Of a stretch of 13,531 nucleotides of DNA, positions 1 through 13,531 are shown one piece after another. The translations under genes and the position numbers were made by a program. Below the pieces are notes generated by a model. The model saw only the letters and a program-made list of their open reading frames with translations. It ran no database searches and had not been told where the DNA came from. The first letter of the stretch is position 1. Each line of letters starts with the position of its first letter. Source of the DNA: a virus; the UHGV virus genome UHGV-0241990, one strand, 5' to 3'.

Positions 1-829
1 CCACCATATCGCCTAACGCATGCGGCTGGAACTGTGGGACCAGATAAGCAGTATTCTCTGGCAGACTATCCATTTGCACCACACGCAGAGCTAAGCCCGG
101 AATGCGGAAGGTCGGGAAGCCCGGCAGAATATCCTCAGGGAACATCAGACCTTTGTCGGTAATATTCTGATTGCCGAACAACAGCACTTTACGGAGCAGT
201 TCATCAGTCTGAATTGCAGCAAAGAGCTCAGCACGGCAGAACAGGGTGAAACCACGCAGAGCGCGAACAACACCACGCTGTTTAACCTTGCTCAGTGCAA
301 CCAGGTCCTGCAGCTGTTTAAGGATATCTTGAGCTAGATCCACTTCTGAAGTGGTTTGCTGTGCGCCCAGCAGTTCGCACACATTCAGTTCTTTACCCTT
401 GGTAAGGATAATTTTGTTCTCAAAGAGAGCAAGCTGGCGTGCTTCTTCATGGGTCGCGCGTAGTCCTTCACCCAGTTGAATAACACGACGAGCGGTTACA
501 GACTCTAAATTCTCTTCGGAATCTTTGCCCGGAACACGGATACCTTGCCAGTCAGAAGGATAAATAGCACTTGATGCGGCAGTGAATGCCATATCACCCG
601 TGCCCGTTTCACGCTCATCTGCGGTAATGGTAGCCATCTGTTCACCGTAGCGCGGATACTGACCGAAAGCGGTTTGTTTCACCTGGCGAACTTTGTCATA
701 TTCAAATTTAAAGGTATTGCACAGGGCTGTAGTGTTGAAGATATCCATTGCTGAAATAATCTGGTTATCCAGCGGGATGTCTTTAATCAGACCACACAGA
801 TCGCGAACTTCAAATTCTTTCTTAGCCAT
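1..829 (-). CDS. putative major capsid protein (N-terminal ~276 codons; gene runs past window start)
   Basis: Minus-strand frame opens at ATG 829..827 and runs to position 1 with no stop (frame hand-checked over several segments). GGAGG Shine-Dalgarno at 840..836, 6 nt upstream. Begins MAKKEFEVRDL. Lies directly downstream of the decoration-like gene (lambda D-E type order). Capsid call is from context and protein character, not confirmed homology. Confidence 0.5.
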   Translation of the reverse strand, partial: MAKKEFEVRDLCGLIKDIPLDNQIISAMDIFNTTALCNTFKFEYDKVRQVKQTAFGQYPRYGEQMATITADERETGTGDMAFTAASSAIYPSDWQGIRVPGKDSEENLESVTARRVIQLGEGLRATHEEARQLALFENKIILTKGKELNVCELLGAQQTTSEVDLAQDILKQLQDLVALSKVKQRGVVRALRGFTLFCRAELFAAIQTDELLRKVLLFGNQNITDKGLMFPEDILPGFPTFRIPGLALRVVQMDSLPENTAYLVPQFQPHALGDMV

Positions 830-840
830 CTTCAACCTCC

Positions 841-1176
841 TTATTGTGCAACACGCAAATCGCCATTGCTGGCAGCAATAACAGCGGCTAAGCCTTCTTT
901 ATCCACGTAGGCCGGATTGATGTAGCAACCTTTGTTCGCAACAACGATAAAAGCGTCACCAACCTCAGCACGTTCTACAACCAGCAGCGGAGTTTTACCG
1001 GTGTGCGTTGCTTTAACGAATGTTTCAACCTCGCCTTCCTCAGTCACCACAACAACAGTGCCAGCCGGAATCTCAGCCTTAACTTTGTTTTTAATTTCAA
1101 CGTCGCGAATAGAAAATTGCTCATCTGCGGCGTATGAAATGATGTGTCCGCGTGTGCGGATAGTCATATCTCTCAT
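841..1176 (-). CDS. head decoration protein-like (lambda gpD / DUF2190-like), 111 aa
   Basis: ORF from track. AGGTGA SD just upstream of ATG at 1176; stop 841-843 abuts the SD of the next gene. Beta-rich core (PLLVVERAEVGDAFIVVANKGCYINPAYV) resembles the gpD-type decoration fold pattern (recalled, not searched). Confidence 0.55.
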   Translation of the reverse strand: MRDMTIRTRGHIISYAADEQFSIRDVEIKNKVKAEIPAGTVVVVTEEGEVETFVKATHTGKTPLLVVERAEVGDAFIVVANKGCYINPAYVDKEGLAAVIAASNGDLRVAQ

Positions 1177-1620: not shown

Positions 1621-1943
1621 CAAATCACTTTCACCATTGATTTACGGTATATGTATATTATATCAGTATTCTCTCAAATTGTCAACCCCCTTATTATATA
1701 AATTCTAATAATTAGCGTAGTAACGGTATTTTCAGACCTCTATCAATCCCATCAATACGTCATCTCATCGCATCTATCATAACTTTTTCATTCGTGATAG
1801 ATATCTTTTGATCAATATCAATGTTTTCCGGGGATTTACCCGGTTATAGTTCGAATCAAGGAAGGGTAGCATTGATAGAGACACCCAAAGGGGTGACTGA
1901 AAGTCACCTGGCATAGCCAGTGAAAGCACCCAACCGAGCAAAC

Positions 1944-2491: not shown

Positions 2492-3202
2492 ATGTTTAAG
2501 GGAATTATTGTTACACTATTAGCTTGCATTGTATTTGGTCCATGGGTGTTAGTAATTGCTTTGCCTCTATTACTAGTGATGAGTGTAGGGAAAGATATTA
2601 AAAAGCTGCATGCACAATATAAAGAGCACCCTGGAGCAGTCATAACAAGTCTGGTTATAGTCGCGGGGCTTATTGGCTGGGCCTACTTCTCTCTTCCCAC
2701 AGGAAATACAGCTGCAAATGTGGAAGAGGTGAACTCACAGCATGAAGAAGTGGTTAACGTCTCCGATCTTACATGGGAGGACAGGGTAAAAGCATATAAA
2801 TATATTTATGGTGTGCTAGATTGCGATCTCTCTAAAGATATAGGATGCACAGATAAATACCAGATTCACGCCTGGCTGTGGAATCATGCAGAAAAAGGTG
2901 CTTGCAACCAGATTAAAGTGGCGGTTAACAGTGGGGCACCTACTGGGAAAAATAAAGATGTTCTGACGGTATGGTGCAAGGATGTAAAAGGCAATGATCG
3001 TTGGCTACAGATGCGCCACATGGACGGTGTAAGCATAGAAACTACACGAACGGCTCGATGGTATAACGGTGAACTCGTTCACGAAGCATGGCAGAATAAC
3101 GCCTGGATCACTGAGGGAACACTCCTGAATGTTGATATGGAAGCATTGAAGATGCTTAATGAGATGTACGGTGAAGCCGTAGAAACCTCTCCTATGAAAT
3201 AA
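2492..3202 (+). CDS. membrane-anchored protein, 236 aa (two N-terminal TM helices plus soluble Cys-containing domain)
   Basis: ORF from track. Hydrophobic stretches IIVTLLACIVFGPWVLVIALPLLLV and ITSLVIVAGLIGWAYF, then a ~170-aa hydrophilic domain with several Cys. Followed immediately by a strong terminator. Confidence 0.85.
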   Translation: MFKGIIVTLLACIVFGPWVLVIALPLLLVMSVGKDIKKLHAQYKEHPGAVITSLVIVAGLIGWAYFSLPTGNTAANVEEVNSQHEEVVNVSDLTWEDRVKAYKYIYGVLDCDLSKDIGCTDKYQIHAWLWNHAEKGACNQIKVAVNSGAPTGKNKDVLTVWCKDVKGNDRWLQMRHMDGVSIETTRTARWYNGELVHEAWQNNAWITEGTLLNVDMEALKMLNEMYGEAVETSPMK

Positions 3203-3218
3203 CCACACCAACCCACCA

Positions 3219-3245
3219 GGGGGCCATCACGGCCCCTTTTTTATT
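3219..3245 (+). terminator. rho-independent terminator
   Basis: GGGGCC (3220-3225) / GGCCCC (3231-3236) stem, ATCAC loop, then TTTTTTATTT; 17 nt after the stop of the 236-aa gene. Confidence 0.85.
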
Positions 3246-3248
3246 TAT

Positions 3249-3303
3249 CCCCTATTTAACCCCTATTTAATGGGTATTTAATGCCTATTTATTGATTTAA
3301 TGG
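3249..3303. repeat. five tandem 11-bp units with TATTTAA core
   Basis: cccctatttaa (3249), cccctatttaa (3260), tgggtatttaa (3271), tgcctatttat (3282), tgatttaatgg (3293). Period is one helical turn. Confidence 0.6.
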
Positions 3304-3783
3304 TTTTGGGCATTGTTGACAGTGTAAGAGAGAGGATGTAACCCTTTTTTGCAATACTAATAAAATCAATAGCTTAGCTCAATTGGCCTTTTCTCTATTT
3401 TTGTCAAATTTAACATACCCTCAAAAACTGCAAAATCTGGCTGCAAGATTATCTGCAGCTGGATTTCTTACACCTCAATTTGTAGTATCACCCTGACTAG
3501 TTTGTGCATAAAATGAACAGTTTTTAACATTTCCTATTCACCTGGTAACCACACAAAAAGCTAAAAACGAGGCACAGATAATCTTAGAGGCCTGTTTTCT
3601 TGTTATCACTCTGGGAACGTCGTAGAAGTGATTTTGATGAAAGATGACCTACCCTATTACACCCCCATTTTTTGTTATCACAATTGCATCCTGTGCGGTG
3701 TATGGCTGTGTGCTGAAAGCGGTCTTGGGTGTGGGTGTCAGAAATATCCATTAGCGGTATTAATACCCGTCAGATGTTCGTCT

Positions 3784-3820
3784 GAGGTGCCAGGCAGGCG
3801 CTCCCCCACCTCCCTTTTTT
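3784..3820 (+). terminator. orphan terminator-like hairpin plus T-run in non-coding DNA
   Basis: GAGGTG (3784-3789) pairs CACCTC (3807-3812) with GC-rich inner pairing, followed by CC TTTTTT (3815-3820). No annotated gene upstream on this strand. Confidence 0.4.
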
Positions 3821-4368
3821 CTTCTAACAATTCTCAAATATCACACCACTGCCGACCACGTTGCTATTATGTTAATTCTTAAGCTTTGCTGTATGTTGTG
3901 CACATTATTTATTCAGGTGGCTGTACGTAAATTCTGTGCCCACTGATCATGATTTTTAAATCAGATTTTGTAGTGCGCTTTATTAGTGTAGATAAGATCT
4001 ATTATGTTAAATGCAATTTTCCCAACCCTTCAAATCAATGACTTACATGTAAGCATGCACTAACACCCCACACAGCACATTAGACGTATAGATGGCTATA
4101 TCCCACATTTTTGATTGTTTTGTAGTCATTCCCCTGATCATTTAACCAGTATAGTTTGTTCTCTGTAGACCACAAAACCGGAATTTACATCTGATTAACA
4201 TAATCTGTTAGCATGATCACCATTACCCACACAACAATAACCCCATGCAAGCCTCTTCAGGCAATTTATCGGCGTGTTGGTGTGAACAGTCTTTCATGTT
4301 CTTTATGTATTCATTGTCCTGTGTGAGGGAAGGATGGACTGCCCCAGGGGCCATAGTTATGACACCCG

Positions 4369-4404
4369 GTCAACATAACTGTTGATAAAATCAACGGGTG
4401 TTGA
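4369..4404. promoter_or_regulatory. pair of palindromic operator-like sites TCAACA-N4-TGTTGA and ATCAAC-N4-GTTGAT
   Basis: 4369-4384 TCAACATAACTGTTGA and 4389-4404 ATCAACGGGTGTTGAT share half-site TCAAC / GTTGA; centres 20 bp apart. CCCCAGGGG palindrome at 4341-4349 just upstream. Confidence 0.45.
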
Positions 4405-4525
4405 TCTGCATATTTCCCACACATGAGAGAAAATCAAAGCAAAGAGAGAGGAGAGAGGTTTGCTAGTCAAAATAGGTCAATTGACGGCTAATACAGAGTA
4501 AAAAATCAGATGCAATCACTCCCCC

Positions 4526-4795
4526 ACCTGTTGGGATTTCCTACAACCCCTTTCAGTCATACTCAGGCACCACACCCCGGTAAATATTACCGCACTAACC
4601 TGTAAAGAATTTTCACACCTGTGTGTTTATACAGTCATACTCTCCTGTTTTGCAGTCATTGCACCCATGATACACAGCCCCTAACCTGTCAAAATATTTT
4701 ACTACCCCACCAATAATACGGCCCATACCTGTAAAATATTTTTACTACTACCTGTCAAAATCTTTTACTACTACCTGTAAAAATATTTGACACTA
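4526..4795. repeat. iteron array: ACCTGT-containing ~23-bp repeats with near-palindromic core GT(C)AAAATATTTTAC
   Basis: Well-conserved copies starting near 4598, 4684, 4727, 4750, 4773 (spacings 86, 43, 23, 23 bp). Degenerate ACCTGT/CCTGT copies at 4526, 4617, 4644. Inverted repeat CGGTAAATATTACCG at 4578-4592. Confidence 0.65.
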
Positions 4796-4825
4796 ATAGA
4801 TAAAGTAATAGACCACACAATAGAT

Positions 4826-4859
4826 CCCCCCCTAACCCCCCAGGGGGGAATGGGGAGGG
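4826..4859. repeat. homopolymer C/G tract palindrome (C7-TAA-C6-A-G6-AAT-G4-A-G3)
   Basis: Read directly: ccccccctaaccccccaggggggaatggggaggg. CCCCCC A GGGGGG centred at 4842. Shorter CCCCAGGGG relative at 4341-4349. Confidence 0.5.
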
Positions 4860-5377
4860 ATCAGAGAGTGGGGAAGGTTTTCTAAGGGAAAAGCTTAACC
4901 CACAAATGAAAGCCTAAAGAGCATTAGCGACTCTTTAGGCAATATGTGTGTGGGGGTGACAATGTATTCCATACATGACACGTCACCCAATTGTGTGTGG
5001 GAGTGCCTACGGCACCTTAGCCCATGGCTAAGCCCTTCGGGTCTGTGTGTGGTCCGGCGAATGCGTCAGCATGAGGCCCACATGTGGACCGCTGCCGAAA
5101 GCTTGCCAGCGCCGGAAGGAGGCAGCAAAGAGTCTCCCGCGCGGGTGCACGCACACATATATAAAGGATACACTCATAAATCGAAAATAAGCCCCCTAAA
5201 TGGCCTTCTGGCTGCATTAACTAGTGTGAGTAGTGCAATTGCATTACCTGACCTCTAAATCGCGTTAGAATCGATTTTAGAGCGCTTAAGGCAAAAAGTG
5301 CCCTCCCTTGTGGGCTTGCTTGTGTCTGCTGTGCAGGCTATGGCACCTATAGCACACCTAAATGATAATAATTCTCA

Positions 5378-5406
5378 TTGACAATTGGTTGACAATATGA
5401 TAAGAT
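5378..5406 (+). promoter_or_regulatory. sigma70-like promoter candidate P1 with duplicated TTGACAAT
   Basis: TTGACA 5378-5383, 17-bp spacer, TAAGAT 5401-5406 (4/6). A second TTGACAAT at 5389-5396, 11 bp downstream of the first. Confidence 0.4.
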
Positions 5407-5441
5407 TATAAATAGGGGGAGAAACAGATCCGGAGGTCAAT

Positions 5442-5591
5442 GTGGAAATTACTGATGCAATAGCGATCATCAACCTGGCTGTACTGTGGTGCGGTGTTGC
5501 CTACATAGCCGGAGTAACTGCAATCGACAATCTTGAAGAAAAAATGATAGATAAATACAAAAAGATTGTTGACAATTTGACGAATGTCTGA
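5442..5591 (+). CDS. small GTG-initiated ORF, 49 aa, predicted TM helix (VEITDAIAIINLAVLWCGVAYIAGVTAIDNLEEKMIDKYKKIVDNLTNV)
   Basis: GGAGG at 5432-5436, 5 nt before GTG 5442; stop TGA 5589-5591. Not in track (short, non-ATG start). Protein-like composition, unlike the antisense track ORF 5406..5606. Confidence 0.3.
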   Translation: MEITDAIAIINLAVLWCGVAYIAGVTAIDNLEEKMIDKYKKIVDNLTNV

Positions 5592-5597
5592 TAAAAT
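5569..5597 (+). promoter_or_regulatory. near-consensus sigma70 promoter P2 for the plus-strand operon
   Basis: TTGACA 5569-5574, exactly 17-bp spacer, TAAAAT 5592-5597; predicted start ~5604, giving a ~120-nt leader before ATG 5725. Confidence 0.6.
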
Positions 5598-5724
5598 ATA
5601 AAGCATAGGGTAATTCTCATCATAGTGAATTTCCTTTAGTAGACTGGCGGGGGCTTGTCTTAAGTTCCCGTTTCTTTTTAATCATATATCGCACAGGTTA
5701 GTGAGCTAACAGGAGGCTTATACT

Positions 5725-5940
5725 ATGGCTAAAACCGGACCGATCAGCCAGCTGGTAAACTGGACTACTGACGAAATCGTCGAGAACGTACTTAAGGGGA
5801 ACTTCCGCAAAACTTCCGTTTATGCATTCATTCGTAAACATAAAGGAGAATATCCACACATTGAAGAAGCAATTTTAAAACTAAATTGCATTCGCCTTGA
5901 GCGGGAACTGGCTAAATACACCAATAACATTAATAAATAA
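5725..5940 (+). CDS. hypothetical small protein, 71 aa
   Basis: ORF from track; AGGAGG SD 5711-5716, 8 nt before ATG 5725; first gene downstream of P2. Confidence 0.7.
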   Translation: MAKTGPISQLVNWTTDEIVENVLKGNFRKTSVYAFIRKHKGEYPHIEEAILKLNCIRLERELAKYTNNINK

Positions 5941-5953
5941 TTATGGGGGAATT

Positions 5954-6820
5954 ATGGCAAGTAATTACGGGGAAAATTTTACTCCCCTTTTTAAACGTTT
6001 CATCAAATACATTTTTAAAAATCCGATTGCAAAAACTACAACCAATAAAGAAAGATTTCACTTAAACTTGTTGGAAATGACAATTTACGGTGAGATGGCA
6101 AGTTTTAATGCTGCAGGTTGTGAAATATTTATCTCTGAACAGAGATTAGCAGACGATTATGATGTTTCAAGACCGACAGTTATTAACTCGATTAAATCTC
6201 TAGAAAATGCCGGGCTTATTTCAATAGTTAAAAGTAAAGGCAAATCTAATCATTACAAACTGCTAATTACCCCTGATCAGCTTGGCAAGATGTGTGATGA
6301 GCAGGGTATTAAAACCTCCGACAGTGTGGGATCTAGTAAAGAGGCCCCCGATAATCAACAGGAAGCCCCAAAACAACCCACACAGCAAGCTAAAAAGGCC
6401 GAGGTGGTGCAATTGCCTACCCAACCTAAGAACGAGCGCAGAGAGCGCTTTAGAGACGCTGGCAAACGTGAGAAAGATGAGCACGGTTATCCGATTCTGA
6501 CAAGTGATGAGATGAACGCCAAATACAAAGGGATTCAGGCAACATTTAAGGATCGGAAGAGCATTAAACTCTCTGAATTGCGAGATGCATTTTACGGGCC
6601 GGAGGTGATGGATAAAATTAAAGGCACCGTTGAGGGTAGAATCTGGAAAGAAGATGATTATTGGCATTTAACAGAACAGGCCCTTAAGGTGGCTCAACAT
6701 GTAGCTAAAAGAGGTAAAACAATTATCATCGATTATATTAGTCATGGCTATGATGCCCCGAAAGAAAGATTGTGGAACAACTGCAAGCTTGTAAAAGGCG
6801 AATTAACCATTACAAAATAA
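5954..6820 (+). CDS. winged-HTH DNA-binding protein, candidate replication initiator or iteron-binding regulator, 288 aa
   Basis: Track ORF 5897..6820; start moved to in-frame ATG 5954 (GGGGGA upstream, avoids 44-nt overlap with previous gene). HTH segment ISEQRLADDYDVSRPTVINSIKSLENAGLISIVK, a Q/P/K/E-rich linker, then a distinct C-terminal domain. Lies ~1.2 kb downstream of the iteron array. Confidence 0.8.
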   Translation: MASNYGENFTPLFKRFIKYIFKNPIAKTTTNKERFHLNLLEMTIYGEMASFNAAGCEIFISEQRLADDYDVSRPTVINSIKSLENAGLISIVKSKGKSNHYKLLITPDQLGKMCDEQGIKTSDSVGSSKEAPDNQQEAPKQPTQQAKKAEVVQLPTQPKNERRERFRDAGKREKDEHGYPILTSDEMNAKYKGIQATFKDRKSIKLSELRDAFYGPEVMDKIKGTVEGRIWKEDDYWHLTEQALKVAQHVAKRGKTIIIDYISHGYDAPKERLWNNCKLVKGELTITK

Positions 6821-6859
6821 ACATTCTTATTTTTTACAGTATTCTAAAGGAAATTTAAA

Positions 6860-7006
6860 ATGTATGGCGATCTTGATTATTACCTGGAAAAGGAAAAATA
6901 TTTTGAAGATGAACTATCACAACATTTTTCATATTGGGAAGAATATTGTGGTTGGTTAGCTGAAGATCCAGCAGATGAAGAAAATGATTCTGACATCCCT
7001 TATTAA
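6860..7006 (+). CDS. tiny acidic protein, 48 aa (MYGDLDYYLEKEKYFEDELSQHFSYWEEYCGWLAEDPADEENDSDIPY)
   Basis: Not in track (short). AAGGA SD 8 nt before ATG 6860; stop TAA 7004-7006. Fills the otherwise empty gap between flanking genes. Strongly acidic with aromatic residues. Confidence 0.45.
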   Translation: MYGDLDYYLEKEKYFEDELSQHFSYWEEYCGWLAEDPADEENDSDIPY

Positions 7007-7104
7007 TTAATATCCCCTGTTATCCCCAAACAAACTAAATAAACAAACTAAGCACTAGAACTAGATTGATTGCCCTGATCTTTTAAACGTTCGGAGAATT
7101 AATC

Positions 7105-7593
7105 ATGTTCAAATCTGATCTTTCTGATTCCCAATTTGAAAAACTGGTAGCACTGCAGAAATATCTCCCCAGTGATGATCAACCAACACGACAGGCTAAA
7201 CACTTATTAGTCGAGGGCTTTACCCCTGAATTCGTGGCGGAATATACAGGCGTTAAACTTGAGAAAGTCCAAAAACTATATAATGAGTCCTGGAATCCAC
7301 GGTGTCGAGTTCCCCTCAGTGTCTACAACGAAATAGATAGAGATAGAAATGTCTTCGAAGATCGCCGCCGCAAATCTCTTTTAATGTGGAATTGTGGGAT
7401 GAATATTGAAGAGATAGCAAAAGAATTAAAAGTAACCTGCTTTCATATCTGGGGCTTGTTGAGTGAAATCCTGCCACGTAAGGAGCTTAATCAACGTTTG
7501 CCTAAGCCCGGTAGTCGTGCTTATCGCGAATTTATATTCATCTACCGCCGCCATAGAAATAAAGTCCAGAAAGCAATGGCCCAGAAAGCCTAA
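7105..7593 (+). CDS. putative DNA-binding protein with two sigma region 4-like HTH segments, 162 aa
   Basis: ORF from track; GGAG SD 8 nt before ATG 7105. HTH-like segments FTPEFVAEYTGVKLEKVQKL and MNIEEIAKELKVTCFHIWGLLSEIL; basic C-terminus. Confidence 0.8.
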   Translation: MFKSDLSDSQFEKLVALQKYLPSDDQPTRQAKHLLVEGFTPEFVAEYTGVKLEKVQKLYNESWNPRCRVPLSVYNEIDRDRNVFEDRRRKSLLMWNCGMNIEEIAKELKVTCFHIWGLLSEILPRKELNQRLPKPGSRAYREFIFIYRRHRNKVQKAMAQKA

Positions 7594-8555: not shown

Positions 8556-8792
8556 ATGAATATCTACGAAAAGATTTATCAAAAACTGGTTAAGGACTCC
8601 GAAGACACGCCCGAAGGGGTGACAATAGGTCACCTGCCAGAGGCAGCGAAAGAGGGGTCCACCATTATTAAAAGTAGCTCCCACACAGAAGGCCTCTCAA
8701 TCGAAGAGCTGGCGGAGAAATATAATATTGATAAAGAGGCCCTGAAAAGGGCTATTTCATTATCAAAATCTTTAAGACAGGGCGAGGTATAA
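8556..8792 (+). CDS. hypothetical protein, 78 aa
   Basis: ORF from track; tightly packed between neighbours (stop 8790-8792, next ATG 8794), consistent with translational coupling. Confidence 0.7.
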   Translation: MNIYEKIYQKLVKDSEDTPEGVTIGHLPEAAKEGSTIIKSSSHTEGLSIEELAEKYNIDKEALKRAISLSKSLRQGEV

Positions 8793-8793
8793 A

Positions 8794-10935
8794 ATGGCAA
8801 TGAAGGAAGTAGCCAGACTAACAAACGTTATTTACTGGGACTCTGATAAATCCTCCTGGCGAAAAGAAGTTAAACGGCTTGAGGATTATAAAAAATCCTG
8901 GAAGAAAGCTACCGACGATATAGCTAAAGCTGATTTTAAATCTAATCAGGCTGTGCTCAGAACACAAAGAACACGCGCTAAGGTGGAAGAGCAGATAGCC
9001 AGAGCTCAGAGGAAACAACAGGAAGCACAGAAGAAACAACGTGCTCAGGCTGTCAGCCGTCTGACCGGGGGCAACAATGCCGAACTTAACTCTATGCGCA
9101 AGTTCTACCAACAACAAGCCAGAGAAGCCGCCAGACAACAAAAACTGTTAGATCGTAGTGTTGGAGATGTTCAGCACAGAAAAGCACGTGTAGGGGCCAA
9201 CAGTGCACGAATCAGCAGCATGTTTGATGGATCCCTGGTTGCTCAGTTCCAAAGCAGAATCCAGAGAGTTAATGCTGATTATGCTAAAGGGGCTATTAAC
9301 CTGCAGACCTATAATCAGAAAATGGCCCGACTCAGAGCTGAAATGAAGATGGCCTCTAGAGATGCCACCACCTTTCAAAGCAAGCTAGATAAACTGGCAG
9401 CAGGTGCGAGCAAGGTGCATAACAATATCGGCAAGCTTAACAGTGCTTTAGGCAAGATAGCCATTGGCCTGACCGCTGCAGGATGGGGTATTCAGAGAGC
9501 TGTTAGTGGTGCTATGAGCGCTCAATCTGACCATAACTCAGCCTATTATGGTTTGCTTGCTCAGAACAAGGATGATAAAGCCAAGACTGACCAGCAGATG
9601 GCTTTTATCGAGAACACAGCCAACACCTACGGGATGGATCAGCGTGAGATGGAGGGTGGCTATATGCGTTTTGCTGCCGCTACTCCCACCATGAAGGAAT
9701 CTGATAAGCAGGCTCTTTTTGAGGCTATGGCGATTAAAGGCCGCTCAGTGGGTGCTACTGGCGAGCAACAGAACAGGGCGCTTGTTGCGGTCCAACAAAT
9801 GGCTTCAAAAGGAAGAGTAGCTGCGGAAGAGCTGCGTGGCCAGCTGTCAGAAGCCTTTGCAGGCTCACAACAGGATTTTCAACAGGCCGCTATTGATGCC
9901 GGAATCATCAAGAGTGCCCAGGAATTCGATAAAGCCATGGCAGATGGCAAAATCACCCTGGACAAGCTTCTTCCCTCTCTAGTGAAAATCTGGGGTGCTG
10001 CAAAAGAAACTGACGCTTTTGCTAAATCTATGCAACAGCCTGAAGTGGCACTGCAGAGAATGAGCAACCAGTTTTTTAAACTAAAGCAATCCTTTATGGG
10101 TGTTGTGGATCCTGCGGATGGCGTCATTACCCTGTCAGAATCCCTTATTTATATCTTTGAAGATTTATCCTCAATTTTCAGTAGCTCAGGTGAAGATGCC
10201 AAATCTCTCGGAGTTATGTTAGGCGAGGCAATGCATGAAATTTATTTTTGGGTCAACTGGGCTTGGTGGTGGACTAAGAAGATCGCCAAAGGCATTGGTG
10301 AGACGTTAGGCTGGACCGCACAGGATGCAGGCGAGAAGATTGGCCAGGTTGTGACCGCCCTGTTAGGCCTGAAGGTTGCAACAAGCATTGCTGGCATGGT
10401 TGGCGGCCTTATTTCCATGCTGTGGAAACTTAAAGCGGCGCTTAGTGCTTTAGTCGGTGTTGGTGATATCAGCACTGGAGGCACAGCAGGCAAAGGCAGA
10501 CCAGGTAGAGGCGGCTTTATCGGGAAAGCAGGCAGACTTGGAGGAAGATTTGCAGGTCCGGCAGGGATTGTTTTGACAGGATTTGACATTGCAAATAGCT
10601 TAGATTCCTACTGGCAGAATCCTGATAATCAGCGGCAGGAAGGAGCTAAACATCCTGAATGGTTAACCAGTATGGTTAATAGTGCTTCTAGCTTCCTTGG
10701 CCTTGATTATCGTCTGGACGCAGGACGCTACATTACCAGACCAACACCAACGGGTGGTATTGCTATTCAGAATGGAGGCTATCAGCCGACTCAAATCAGT
10801 GTAGTTCCGCAGGGTGAGATCTCCGGCAAGTGGGAGATAACCATTGATGAGGGGGGAATTGCCAGGGTGATCCAGAAGGAAGTCAGCGATCAGCTGGATT
10901 GGAAAGCCACACAGGAAGCTAATCAGCTTTTCTAA
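8794..10935 (+). CDS. tape-measure-like protein, 713 aa
   Basis: ORF from track. Long charged Q/K/R/E-rich helical N-terminus; central segment GEQQNRALVAVQQMASKGRVAAEELRGQLSEAFAG resembling the conserved tape-measure domain (recalled). Hydrophobic segments (VVTALLGLKVATSIAGMVGGLISMLW) and a Gly-rich stretch (GGTAGKGRPGRGGFIGKAGRLGGRFAG). Confidence 0.8.
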   Translation: MAMKEVARLTNVIYWDSDKSSWRKEVKRLEDYKKSWKKATDDIAKADFKSNQAVLRTQRTRAKVEEQIARAQRKQQEAQKKQRAQAVSRLTGGNNAELNSMRKFYQQQAREAARQQKLLDRSVGDVQHRKARVGANSARISSMFDGSLVAQFQSRIQRVNADYAKGAINLQTYNQKMARLRAEMKMASRDATTFQSKLDKLAAGASKVHNNIGKLNSALGKIAIGLTAAGWGIQRAVSGAMSAQSDHNSAYYGLLAQNKDDKAKTDQQMAFIENTANTYGMDQREMEGGYMRFAAATPTMKESDKQALFEAMAIKGRSVGATGEQQNRALVAVQQMASKGRVAAEELRGQLSEAFAGSQQDFQQAAIDAGIIKSAQEFDKAMADGKITLDKLLPSLVKIWGAAKETDAFAKSMQQPEVALQRMSNQFFKLKQSFMGVVDPADGVITLSESLIYIFEDLSSIFSSSGEDAKSLGVMLGEAMHEIYFWVNWAWWWTKKIAKGIGETLGWTAQDAGEKIGQVVTALLGLKVATSIAGMVGGLISMLWKLKAALSALVGVGDISTGGTAGKGRPGRGGFIGKAGRLGGRFAGPAGIVLTGFDIANSLDSYWQNPDNQRQEGAKHPEWLTSMVNSASSFLGLDYRLDAGRYITRPTPTGGIAIQNGGYQPTQISVVPQGEISGKWEITIDEGGIARVIQKEVSDQLDWKATQEANQLF

Positions 10936-10980
10936 CTGGTTGATAATAAAAGCCCCTCGGGATTTGTCATCCTTTGGGGC

Positions 10981-10992
10981 TCAACTTCTCGC
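10981..10992 (+). repeat. third copy of the core TCAACTTCTCGC
   Basis: Exact 12-nt match to the core of the 18-nt element at 1944 and 2463; lies just after a hairpin (10953-10981) downstream of the tape-measure-like gene. No start codon at the 11-nt distance. Confidence 0.5.
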
Positions 10993-11389
10993 CTGGCAAG
11001 TGTGATCATCTGCAGAGAGAAAGTCAACTCTCTTTCTGTTCACGTTTGATCATTCATACCGTTTGTTTTATATTCATCAGTGGAAACAGATCCCAGAGGT
11101 TAACGCGACCTCTAAGAGAAAATAAGCGTCTATGATCTGGAGTATCTTGTAGAGCACTGGGCTTGATGCGGCCTCACCCTAACCAAGGTGATAAACAGGC
11201 AAACGTTGGTGGTTCTGCTCTCTTACCCGGCAATAAGTGATAAGCCAAAACTAAGAGATGCCCACACGGTTTCACCGCACCGGAATATAAGCAGGTACCT
11301 GATAAAGCTGATCTACATGAAAACCTGAAAACCCCTAAATGATGCTAGTGTTTCTCCTTACCACCAACACGGCATCAAAAAGAGTTCTA

Positions 11390-11418
11390 TTGTCTGAATT
11401 CAGGATTTTGGCTATAAT
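11390..11418 (+). promoter_or_regulatory. sigma70-like promoter for the 49-aa ORF
   Basis: TTGTCT 11390-11395, 17-bp spacer, perfect TATAAT 11413-11418. Confidence 0.55.
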
Positions 11419-11452
11419 GTAGGCGTAGCAGGTCATAAGAAGGGGTGACACT

Positions 11453-11602
11453 ATGAAGAATGCCAATGCCATTAAGCGAAATAACCGCAAGATTCACGCT
11501 CGCAAGTTTCTCAAGACTGAAGAAGGCCGGAAATGGTTAGAAGAGAAGCAGAAGGAACGGCAGGAGATAAAGCTTGTGCGGGAATTATCCCAGTTTATCT
11601 AA
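11453..11602 (+). CDS. small basic protein, 49 aa (MKNANAIKRNNRKIHARKFLKTEEGRKWLEEKQKERQEIKLVRELSQFI)
   Basis: Not in track (short). AAGGGGTGA SD before ATG 11453; stop TAA 11600-11602. Own promoter and terminator. Confidence 0.6.
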   Translation: MKNANAIKRNNRKIHARKFLKTEEGRKWLEEKQKERQEIKLVRELSQFI

Positions 11603-11612
11603 TCTCAGAGAG

Positions 11613-11639
11613 AGGGGCTATCAGGCCCCTTTCTTGTCT
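11613..11639 (+). terminator. rho-independent terminator
   Basis: AGGGGC (11613-11618) / GCCCCT (11625-11630) stem, 6-nt loop, then TTCTTGTCT. Overlaps the stop codon of the convergent minus-strand gene. Confidence 0.6.
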
Positions 11640-12079
11640 ATGTCTACCCAGTATTTGATTGCACCGATCAAATCATCATAGTGGCGCATTGCATCATTGA
11701 AGCCTTTATAGCTTGCCCATTGTGGGGAAACCTTGTTATTGCTGAATTGCCCACTAATCAGGATAGTCTCCAAAATGTCGGCGTATCGCTTGCCAATTCG
11801 CTTTCTGACGGCCTCAGAGCTCCCACCCTTTACGATTGCATTAATCAGGGCTTTTGTGTGTCTCAGGCTCTCATAGAGCATTGCAGCGTGGGCAGACTCC
11901 ATAAATGAGCGCTTAGGCAAATCACCCCACCCCTCAGAGTGGATAGCCGCCAGTGTGGCGTAATTCAGGCCGCTATAGTGTTTCCCGTCATCCCAGCCAA
12001 CCGCTACACCTTCCATCTGTGAGAGCTCTTTATGCAGCTTATCCATCATGCGCTTGTCTATGGTGCACCGGACTTTCAT
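11621..12079 (-). CDS. putative virion morphogenesis protein, 152 aa
   Basis: ORF from track; start ATG overlaps the stop of the upstream gene (ATGA at 12076-12079). Segment VGWDDGKHYSGLNYATLAAIHSEGWGDLPKRSF is reminiscent of small head-tail or tail-completion proteins (weak, recalled). Confidence 0.75.
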   Translation of the reverse strand: MKVRCTIDKRMMDKLHKELSQMEGVAVGWDDGKHYSGLNYATLAAIHSEGWGDLPKRSFMESAHAAMLYESLRHTKALINAIVKGGSSEAVRKRIGKRYADILETILISGQFSNNKVSPQWASYKGFNDAMRHYDDLIGAIKYWVDIDKKGA

Positions 12080-12843
12080 TTTGTAGCATCCTTGGCAAAT
12101 TTGGCTTGCCTTTGCTGATCATAAATGTCTTTTGTGCTCATAGCCCCATCATTTTCATCGAGCAAAGTTTGTAAATTTTTAGGCTTAGCCGATGGGGTGT
12201 TGGTTGAGTTCCCGACGTTGCTATTCTTCTCAGCACTGTTAACAGCACCCTTTTGCTGTGTTTTATTCACCTTCTTACTGTTAGTGAAAACTCCGGCATT
12301 TTCGACCATCTTCACCTTGAAGGTGCGGAATTCTTCAAAAGTGCAATCAATAGTGATGCAGTCGCCAGAGGAAGAGCTACGCTTAACTTCACATTTCGTC
12401 ATGATGAAGTTCTCAAGAAGTCCGGCATCTTCACTAACCAGGCTAACCAGCTGGCGCTTGTCTCTCATTTCCATAAGTGCCTGAACAGCGGCAGCAGGGC
12501 GCATAGATTCACGGGGATTATCTGGATCAGTGTTCCGGTCGATGTAGTTCTCTTTCCGGATGATATGAGGGGAAGAGGTAACAATACCCGTAAAGCTGAC
12601 AGATTTATCTTTAATGACGGCATGGTCTGACATGGTGGTGCCATCCTCGACCGCATAGCTCGATTTCTCAACAGGGAACGAATAGCTGACATCAGAGATA
12701 GAGTCAAAGAAGATAGCCACATTATCGGTATAGTTGAAGCCATCCATTATATTTTTGTTTTGTGAATATCCCCCACACATAACAGTGAATGCAGGAGATC
12801 TCGACTCAGCTTGTTTTGCAGCTGTTAGAGCATCATTAGCCAT
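12076..12843 (-). CDS. hypothetical protein, likely structural, 255 aa (258 aa if started at 12852)
   Basis: Track ORF 12076..12852. GAGG SD is 1 nt from ATG 12852 but 10 nt from ATG 12843, so 12843 preferred. Beta-rich N-terminal part, low-complexity polar C-terminus. Confidence 0.75.
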   Translation of the reverse strand: MANDALTAAKQAESRSPAFTVMCGGYSQNKNIMDGFNYTDNVAIFFDSISDVSYSFPVEKSSYAVEDGTTMSDHAVIKDKSVSFTGIVTSSPHIIRKENYIDRNTDPDNPRESMRPAAAVQALMEMRDKRQLVSLVSEDAGLLENFIMTKCEVKRSSSSGDCITIDCTFEEFRTFKVKMVENAGVFTNSKKVNKTQQKGAVNSAEKNSNVGNSTNTPSAKPKNLQTLLDENDGAMSTKDIYDQQRQAKFAKDATK

Positions 12844-12948
12844 ATTGAACATGCCTCAAAAATGAATCTTTTCGTTGCCCTGCTTAAAATCTGCAGAAAA
12901 TACAGGGCAGTTATTCGTTAGAATCGCTTATAGCTCTTCCCGAGAGCG

Positions 12949-13295: not shown

Positions 13296-13319
13296 GGCCT
13301 TCGAAGAAGGACCTTATTT

Positions 13320-13531
13320 AGCCTTGGCTTTTGCCAGAGCAGCGGCGGCGGAGTTACTAACACTCACTTTAACCACAACCTCAGGCATCATGTTCATGAA
13401 AGCATAAGAGGATTCAATGAAGATTTCTCGTTTACCTCTGGACTCTTCCATATACATGAAAGCTTCACGTGCAGCGCCGTTTGCAAGCTTCAGGTTGCGA
13501 GCGCAAGGGCCGAAAAATTGAGTATAAACGC
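13320..13531 (-). CDS. C-terminal 70 codons of an upstream protein (ends ...VSNSAAAALAKAKAK)
   Basis: Minus-strand open frame from window edge to stop TAA at 13322-13320, hand-translated. Followed by the bidirectional terminator. Confidence 0.55.

Follow-up and report, generated by a model that had tools for sequence, protein, structure and literature searches.

The stretch analysed here, UHGV virus genome UHGV-0241990 (13,531 nt, called the window and always meant at its full length), is a complete circular Escherichia coli plasmid of ~13.5 kb. At 7105..7593 on the plus strand it encodes a 162-aa protein that contains two helix-turn-helix (HTH) domains and is tentatively read as a bipartite regulator that binds DNA sequence-specifically and controls the operons of the element itself. 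The two-HTH gene starts with ATG, comprises 162 codons and a stop in the open reading frame (ORF) list and its translation, and is preceded by a GGAG ribosome-binding site (7093..7096, plus strand) 8 nt 5' of the ATG. It is the fourth gene in a same-strand run that extends from a promoter-like site at 5569-5597 to the end of the tape-measure gene at 10935. The gene is real and under purifying selection, as follows from its 69-cluster family, its nine close clusters and a dN/dS of 0.05-0.21 against four sister plasmids, where synonymous changes exist. The close relatives, found in a search of 5.8 billion proteins, are 45-98% identical, and seven of the nine clusters carry the source label E. 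coli, on contigs that are mostly 13-15 kb long. Only 4-5 amino acids of the two-HTH protein differ in sister plasmids whose initiator protein is 65-82% identical.

Predicted structure of the two-HTH protein

The monomer was modelled with AlphaFold2 from an 8-sequence and then a 73-sequence alignment, giving a mean predicted local distance difference test score (pLDDT) of 77.7 and 82.3, respectively. The predicted template modelling score was 0.48 in both runs, which is consistent with two units that move freely relative to each other. Domain 1 consists of helices 8-20, 26-36, 41-48 and 52-61 in the 73-sequence run, with which the 8-sequence run is concordant, and domain 2 consists of helices 83-96, 101-108, 112-120, 125-130, 138-149 and 151-161. 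Two units form a confident tri-helical bundle as in a generic HTH fold, at a pLDDT of ~80-95, and the HTH core is formed by the last three core helices of each domain (aa 26-61 and aa 83-120). The first module (7180..7287, plus strand; helices 26-36, 41-48 and 52-61) has block-mean pLDDT values of 80-93 over residues 21-60, and the second (7351..7464, plus strand; helices 83-96, 101-108 and 112-120) exceeds 90 from residue 91. The sequence-only reading of this DNA had described two HTH-like segments in one 162-aa protein with a basic tail, and both parts of that description are borne out by the models and the composition. The tail (aa 137-162; 7513..7590, plus strand; helices 138-149 and 151-161) contains 8 Lys/Arg against 1 Asp/Glu within 26 aa and has a pI of 11.5, its helix 138-149 packs confidently on domain 2, and the protein as a whole has a pI of 9.6. 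The sequence also follows the HTH pattern G-x-x-x-x-E-I-A-x-x-L-x-(V/L)-(S/P)-x-x-T-V.

The linker between the domains (62-82) is predicted with low confidence, at a block-mean pLDDT of 61 for residues 61-70 and 49 for residues 71-80, with residues 72-79 below 50. Directly after the first HTH, within this flexible linker, lies the most striking conserved element of the protein, the motif W63-N64-P65-R66-C67-R68 (WNPRCR; 7291..7308, plus strand), in which N64 and R68 are invariant in 73 of 73 sequences. The other invariant positions of the 73-sequence alignment are L35, G38, L119 and P133, and K32, V44, V55, L58, G98, L101 and I104 are nearly invariant. The most conserved part of the family is the first HTH module, where K32, L35, G38, V44, V55 and L58 are invariant or nearly so. 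The C-terminal tails differ between sub-families, and R149 of the tail is present in 58 of 73 sequences. An hhalign comparison of the two halves placed the HTHs in register over 33 columns (P = 0.0019) with a probability of only 14%; the halves are predicted to share a motif type, and the alignment falls short of establishing a duplication.

Homology and fold searches

The protein was compared with the Pfam, PHROGs, NCBIfam and PADLOC profile libraries, and family members were compared with Pfam (18 members) and PHROGs (73 members). The second HTH exhibits sub-threshold Pfam matches to HTH_40 (E = 0.0068), Sigma70_r4 (E = 0.015, 15.2 bits against a cut-off of 24.1, aa 78-111), HTH_23 (E = 0.026) and Sigma70_r4_2 (E = 0.096, 12.8 bits against a cut-off of 25.7). 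These matches suggest weakly that it is of the sigma region 4 or LuxR-GerE type. The first HTH matches KorA (aa 8-64, E = 0.065, 13.9 bits against a cut-off of 26.7), HTH_23 and a small-terminase PHROG, all below threshold. Both segments had earlier been called sigma region 4-like, and a comparison with profiles of that region had been proposed; the description survives in weak, sub-threshold form for the second HTH and does not hold for the first. Among the 18 members, HTH_23 was matched by 5, Sigma70_r4 by 4 (best E = 1.4e-4), and KorA (best E = 0.0031), Sigma70_r4_2 and HTH_40 by 3 each, with one match each for Mor (E = 0.018), HTH_7 and Terminase_5 (E = 0.18). Sigma70_r2 gave no match in the 18 members at E <= 1 nor in the window protein at E <= 10, and the window protein did not match Pfam Mor (PF08765). 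A clear homology to the small terminase subunit, which the sequence-only reading had named as an outcome that would speak against it, was not found; the only such match of the window protein is phrog_7067 (E = 0.055), which is matched by 3 of 73 members (best E = 0.0024).

A sequence profile search of the PDB aligned the second HTH with the DNA-binding domains of LiaR, VraR and DesR (E 0.07-1). A deeper profile returned only designed helical repeats and Cbp1 (2lvs, E = 0.004) and did not recover the LuxR-type domains. Foldseek searches of the two AlphaFold2 models against PDB and BFVD gave best E-values of 0.026-0.34, all to generic multi-HTH proteins. The lists contain sigma factors (E 0.3-3, TM ~0.17), Cbp1, HNF-1, AraC-type proteins, NarL/LiaR-type proteins, Mor and transposase/paired-type phage proteins, with the LuxR/GerE-type matches at E 1.5-4. 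Neither PDB search has a small terminase subunit among its 50 listed matches, and Q antiterminators are absent from the PDB and BFVD lists. All weak sequence or fold matches are DNA-binding HTH proteins. The two-HTH protein lies outside all described families and contains the HTH fold twice; none of the four profile libraries and two structure libraries searched recognises its family, and the fold itself is ordinary.

A scan of representative sequences (full HMMER, 1.84 billion) gave 108 matches, part of which are full-length relatives of 150-215 aa, and a profile search grouped the family into its 69 clusters, all from Enterobacteriaceae or metagenomes and all devoid of a name or a Pfam domain. 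Its members are found on E. coli contigs of 13-15 kb, as chromosomal copies in Klebsiella, Raoultella, Citrobacter and Ewingella, and on metagenomic contigs. No homologue was found in 50,697 phage records by tblastn at E <= 1. Long multi-HTH proteins with 5-12 tandem repeats, such as P0011 (818 aa), were set aside as motif-level matches and are not counted as relatives. As an observation in its own right, three of these proteins (P0011, P0013 and P0020; up to 818 aa) contain 6-12 tandem HTH repeats of ~55 aa, are rich in Lys and Glu, and represent natural HTH-repeat arrays.

Genomic position in plasmids and islands

Of 5,426 complete genomes, 7 contain circular E. coli plasmids of 13.2-13.7 kb that match the window at 92-97% identity; one record of 39.6 kb contains three matching places and is multimer-like. 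The two-HTH gene is present in the window, in seven sister or more divergent plasmids (L001, L002, L010, L011, L012, L014 and L015) and in five islands. The E. coli plasmids L014 and L015 are more divergent, with two-HTH proteins that are 45% and 56% identical, and their plan is unchanged. Chromosomal homologues reside in integrase-bearing islands of ~10-15 kb (L003-L009) in Klebsiella, Citrobacter and uncultured bacteria or metagenomic contigs. In every case the gene lies just downstream of an initiator-like gene. The two are adjacent in the islands, where the two-HTH start follows the initiator stop by 12-20 nt, and are separated by one small ORF in several plasmids. The island genes are arranged as follows: proteins of ~142 aa and then ~50-70 aa, an initiator-like protein whose family varies, the two-HTH protein, a ~120-aa protein, a gap of 450-750 nt, a decoration-like protein and the capsid protein (Phage_cap_E), with a tape-measure gene in addition in L009. 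The two-HTH gene is penultimate before the capsid promoter in four of five islands; one more small gene is present in L007, and L009 has the added tape-measure gene. By analogy, this penultimate position recalls that of late-gene regulators at the end of an early operon.

Clustering with phmmer identified only four families common to the window and the five islands, namely the p71/142-aa, two-HTH, decoration-like and capsid protein families. The p71 family member is 142-148 aa long in four of five islands and is split into calls of 105 and 33 aa in L008. The plasmids L010 and L012 carry unrelated sequence in place of the initiator and iterons, and their two-HTH gene is still 90-100% identical in DNA; the iterons co-vary with the initiator, whereas the two-HTH gene does not follow them. 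Since the gene is constant across this initiator swap, it would serve something conserved rather than the replication module. A role as excisionase or in partition was rejected because the gene is kept in both the integrase-free plasmids and the chromosomal islands. The iterons and initiator form an exchangeable module within window positions 4400-6900, the genes on either side of which are more than 90% identical in L010 and L012.

Promoters and leaders

The operon of the two-HTH gene is headed by a promoter-like site at 5569..5597 on the plus strand (TTGACA-17-TAAAAT with a TG extension, 11/12), followed by a 127-nt leader to the first gene that contains a terminator-like hairpin (5646..5672, plus strand). 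The capsid operon has a promoter-like site at 1657..1685 on the minus strand (TTGACA-17-TATAAT with TG, 12/12), which is followed by a 480-nt leader. Both promoter elements are also present in L001, L012 and L015, with spacers that differ. Because both promoters are near-perfect sigma-70 promoters, an alternative sigma factor or a classical activator would be needless for either operon. The earlier suggestion of a sigma-like appropriator of host RNA polymerase is not supported by these promoters, which need none; nor was any sign of an anti-sigma function seen. A shared operator in the two promoters was considered and rejected, as the sister plasmids conserve only the -35 and extended -10 elements and differ in the spacers.

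The capsid leader is itself conserved, with the block 1201-1600 being 90-100% identical across sister plasmids and 1401-1600 being 98-100% identical. The capsid leaders of the islands are 450-750 nt long, and intrinsic terminators follow the TG-extended promoter in L005 (three), L007 (one) and L009 (two to three). Control of these operons seems to lie downstream of initiation, and the architecture of the capsid leader suggests antitermination or structured RNA control.

Proposed function and alternatives

That the protein is a transcription factor had been proposed from the sequence; a DNA-binding regulator is the best-supported reading of the two HTHs, the Arg-bearing linker, the basic tail and the types of match, and the sigma and anti-sigma forms of the proposal are not retained. 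The explanation we favour, without holding it firmly, is that the protein binds specific sites in two parts and regulates the element's own operons. The two tri-helical HTH domains of the protein, which differ from each other and are flexibly tethered, would each read one half of an extended, asymmetric site, and the invariant Asn64 and Arg68 of the WNPRCR linker may sit in the groove between the half-sites. A minor-groove contact of this kind is proposed by analogy with paired domains, Tc3 and Hin, in which the linker between the HTHs lies in the DNA groove. The basic C-terminal helix would add non-specific nucleic-acid affinity. The gene is placed in the initiator operon behind a strong sigma-70 promoter-like site, with co-transcription being read from the layout, and its product would control the life-cycle genes of the element, above all the decoration-capsid operon. 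It could do so by repressing strong promoters or by allowing transcription to pass through the long leaders, and it would neither replace nor capture the host sigma factor.

Several observations weigh against this regulator proposal. The protein belongs to no family at any curated threshold of Pfam, PHROGs, NCBIfam or PADLOC, domain 1 (aa 1-62) has an acidic pI of 5.2, and neither HTH has a notably basic exposed face on its third helix. No DNA target was identified for the protein and no operator is evident, the two operon promoters sharing little beyond their core elements. The capsid leaders of the window itself and of L003 yielded no detected terminator, and the element encodes other HTH candidates for the regulator (2174-2434, p71 and 8556-8792).

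The protein could instead be a packaging-specificity factor, either small-terminase-like or a cos/pac-binding adaptor that marks element DNA for a helper terminase. The element has capsid, decoration and tail genes and no detected terminase or portal, so it needs recognition for packaging, and the two-HTH gene strictly co-occurs with the capsid gene in intact elements. The variation of the tail between sub-families is as expected for a helper-specific contact, and the weak phrog_7067 and Terminase_5 matches point in the same direction. Against this, no oligomerisation hairpin or ring-forming core is predicted, the listed PDB fold matches include no small terminase, the gene in the plasmids sits in the initiator operon and not beside the head genes, and the phage records hold no homologue; this role is judged unlikely. 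About as little weight is given to an accessory role in replication or maintenance, in which the protein would bind origin-proximal DNA, such as phased ATTTAAT repeats, for origin opening, helicase loading or copy-number control. Its constant place behind the initiator-like gene favours such a role, as do the phased ATTTAAT/ATTTGAT arrays in ORF-free regions of the window, L005, L006 and L007. The gene nevertheless fails to co-vary with initiator and iterons (in L010 it is 90-98% identical where the initiator DNA is almost dissimilar), the phased repeats were not found in L003, are doubtful in L008 and L009 and may be a mere AT-rich unwinding element, and no similarity to known helicase loaders was found.

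A sigma-like factor or appropriator that redirects host or helper RNA polymerase to late genes, as the sequence-only reading had envisaged, is very improbable. In size and in having two flexibly joined helical domains, the protein is reminiscent of group-4 sigma factors, its second HTH weakly matches Sigma70_r4 and Sigma70_r4_2, and many of the low-scoring Foldseek matches are to sigma factors. None of the 18 members matches Sigma70_r2 at E <= 1, however, the sigma-factor fold matches are as poor as given above, domain 1 is an ordinary HTH and not a region-2 bundle, and the element's promoters are near-perfect for sigma-70. Hardly more probable is a pure protein-interaction module without nucleic-acid binding, for example one that senses or inhibits a helper-phage protein. 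In its favour are the acidic domain 1, a largely hydrophobic third helix in the second HTH (CFHIWGLLS; family consensus LPLFTVxxxL) and the fact that small proteins which interfere with a helper are common in satellites. The pI of the whole protein, the invariant linker Arg, the basic tail and the typical HTH sequence pattern argue against it.

A more specific proposal, which is offered as a long shot, is that the two-HTH protein is the switch that couples the element to infection by a large lytic myovirus. It would act either as a novel type of DNA-bound antiterminator, Q-like in logic and not in fold, that carries transcription from the consensus promoters through the long, terminator-bearing leaders and on to the decoration and capsid genes, or as a new class of packaging-specificity factor. 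A large lytic myovirus is likely to be the helper or target phage because of the likeness of the element's tail-completion/Neck1 protein, which is 49% identical to proteins of myoviruses of ~140-150 kb (phiTE, CB7, KaOmega and others); its matches include 112 Escherichia phage records. Between the capsid protein of the element and those of phages, identity is only 22-25%.

Comparison with known systems

The second HTH aligns in register with sigma-70 region 4 and with LuxR-GerE domains (NarL, LiaR, VraR and DesR), in weak matches, and its predicted fold is of the same type. The two-HTH protein differs from these proteins in that its match is sub-threshold, it has neither a receiver domain nor sigma region 2, and it carries an additional, different HTH in front of the second HTH and two helices behind it. 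Bipartite HTH binders, namely the paired/HTH_23 proteins of Tc1-IS630 transposases, HNF-1 with its POU domain and homeodomain, and Cbp1, likewise have two HTH units and a flexible, Arg-bearing tether. HTH_23 is the Pfam family matched by most members, and Cbp1 (PDB 2lvs), an archaeal CRISPR-repeat-binding protein, is the best PDB fold match (E = 0.26) in addition to its sequence-profile match. The homology to these binders is not significant, and the two-HTH protein is distinguished from them by the lack of a transposase catalytic domain, by its own linker motif WNPRCR and by its basic C-terminal helix.

The Mor and C proteins of phage Mu are likewise small phage-type regulators with a C-terminal HTH and a basic end. 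Mor is matched by one family member in Pfam and appears in the Foldseek list as PDB 1rr7 (E = 2.6). Mor and C have an N-terminal dimerisation domain where the two-HTH protein has a second HTH, and they activate weak promoters, whereas the promoters of this element are consensus sigma-70 promoters. The KorA (TrfB) repressor is also plasmid-borne, and the N-terminal part of the two-HTH protein is weakly similar to it, below the cut-off; KorA combines a single HTH with a dimerisation domain, in contrast to the two HTHs found here. Small terminase subunits also have an N-terminal HTH and a small size, and the element needs to be packaged by a helper. They differ from the two-HTH protein in their ring-forming core and long helical hairpin, neither of which is predicted here, and the comparison yields no fold match and only sporadic sub-threshold matches.

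The core gene set by which SatelliteFinder defines phage-inducible chromosomal islands that form capsids (cfPICI) includes terL, portal, head-tail adaptor and connector genes, and tail genes are forbidden (PMC10085698). The present element differs from cfPICI in having no detected terminase, portal or protease, and its plasmid form has tape-measure, Dit-like and tail-completion genes; it fits neither the cfPICI nor the P4-like definition. No published description of the element family was found in the literature searched, and it is apparently an undescribed enterobacterial family of capsid-encoding elements that are satellite-like or phage-interfering.

Other genes of the element

The order of the operon is p71, initiator, a 48-aa ORF, the two-HTH gene, three small ORFs and the tape-measure gene. 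The first gene, p71 (5725..5940, plus strand), was identified as a family by phmmer clustering and is represented in all related elements. It is followed by the initiator-like protein (5897..6820, plus strand), a winged HTH protein of O-like/DnaD-like type with matches to phrog_270 (E = 4.7e-12), HTH_36 and HTH_11. The tape-measure protein (8794-10935, plus strand) matches TMP_3. The C-terminal third of the tape-measure gene (10165-10660) and most of the ~685-nt convergent intergenic region (10935-11645) exhibit no DNA similarity to the sister plasmids, and this intergenic region contains an ORF of 49 aa (11453-11602) that is highly basic and has a good ribosome-binding site.

The capsid gene spans the window junction in a 352-codon frame, with the N-terminal part of the major capsid protein at 1..829 and the C-terminal part at 13314..13531 (both minus strand), and its product is 98% identical to the annotated capsid protein of the sister plasmids. 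The adjacent gene (841..1176, minus strand) encodes a head-decoration-like protein of 111 aa that clusters with island proteins, of which the homologue in L005 matches the head decoration family phrog_2680 (E = 2.6e-6). The minus strand also encodes an 86-aa protein, the tail-completion/Neck1 protein (11621-12079; phrog_222, E = 1.6e-29) and a Dit-like baseplate protein (12076-12852; Pfam Dit_like, E = 3.8e-25). The window proteins include no detected portal, terminase or protease. Two further products of the plus strand are an HTH_7 protein (2174-2434) and a protein of 236 aa whose N-terminal part has a hydrophobic stretch (2492-3202).

Non-coding features

An ORF-free stretch of ~2.5 kb in the window contains the iterons, which comprise 4-5 copies of a ACCTGTAAAATATTTTTACTAC-like sequence (4598..4794, plus strand) and form the presumed origin. 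Within the ORF-free DNA, the ~1.2 kb at 3201-4400 is ~87-99% (mostly 92-99%) identical in five of five sister plasmids and is more conserved than many genes. It has no Rfam match (E <= 1), no tRNA and no phage DNA similarity, and the conserved non-coding blocks in general gave nothing in the Rfam (E <= 1) or phage DNA searches. The block at 3201-4400 may encode a large non-coding RNA or act in cis as a packaging or partition site. Repeats of the type ATTTAAT/ATTTGAT, phased at 10-11 bp, occur at 3242-3305 of the window, 7477-7517 of L005, 6515-6564 of L006 and 5587-5612 of L007, in elements that are otherwise unalignable; they were not found in L003, and their presence in L008 and L009 is doubtful. 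These phased repeats recur while the 22-26-bp iterons differ between elements, and they may serve in DNA unwinding or as an array of sites to which a conserved core protein binds.

Upstream of the initiator operon, one type of promoter-like site occurs twice in succession (5378-5406 and 5569-5597; TTGACAAT...TGATAA[A/G]AT), a duplication that is also seen in L015. The two sites flank a GTG-started ORF of 49 aa (5442-5591), at the place where the sister plasmids are annotated with a 49-aa hypothetical protein. In the island L005, the capsid promoter (11125-11153) overlaps the palindrome TTGATAATGATTATCATTT, and such an overlap is also present in the capsid promoters of L008 and L009. The palindrome is much like the Fur box consensus, which hints at iron-responsive or repressor control of the island capsid promoters.

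A 50-nt segment occurs twice in the window (1877-1926 and 8603-8652; 78% identity) and contains the palindromes GGTGAC-N5-GTCACC and CTGGC-N3-GCCAG. A 78-aa gene contains one copy, and translation of the other, intergenic copy gives a piece of this gene that is interrupted by stops. The copy number and position of the segment vary among the sister plasmids, and it is probably a recombination remnant. As a binding site it is an unlikely candidate because its copies are at shifting places, even within coding genes. The sequence AAGGGGTGAC was discarded as a motif, with three copies in place of the 0.69 expected, a number reached in 7 of 200 shuffles, and with one copy being a ribosome-binding site.

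Significance

By itself, the two-HTH protein is one more uncharacterised HTH regulator, and its value comes from its context. Its gene is one of only four that are conserved across a family of ~10-15 kb enterobacterial plasmids and islands. If the protein is indeed the master regulator or the packaging determinant of these elements, it would provide a genetic handle on how they sense and exploit their helper phage.

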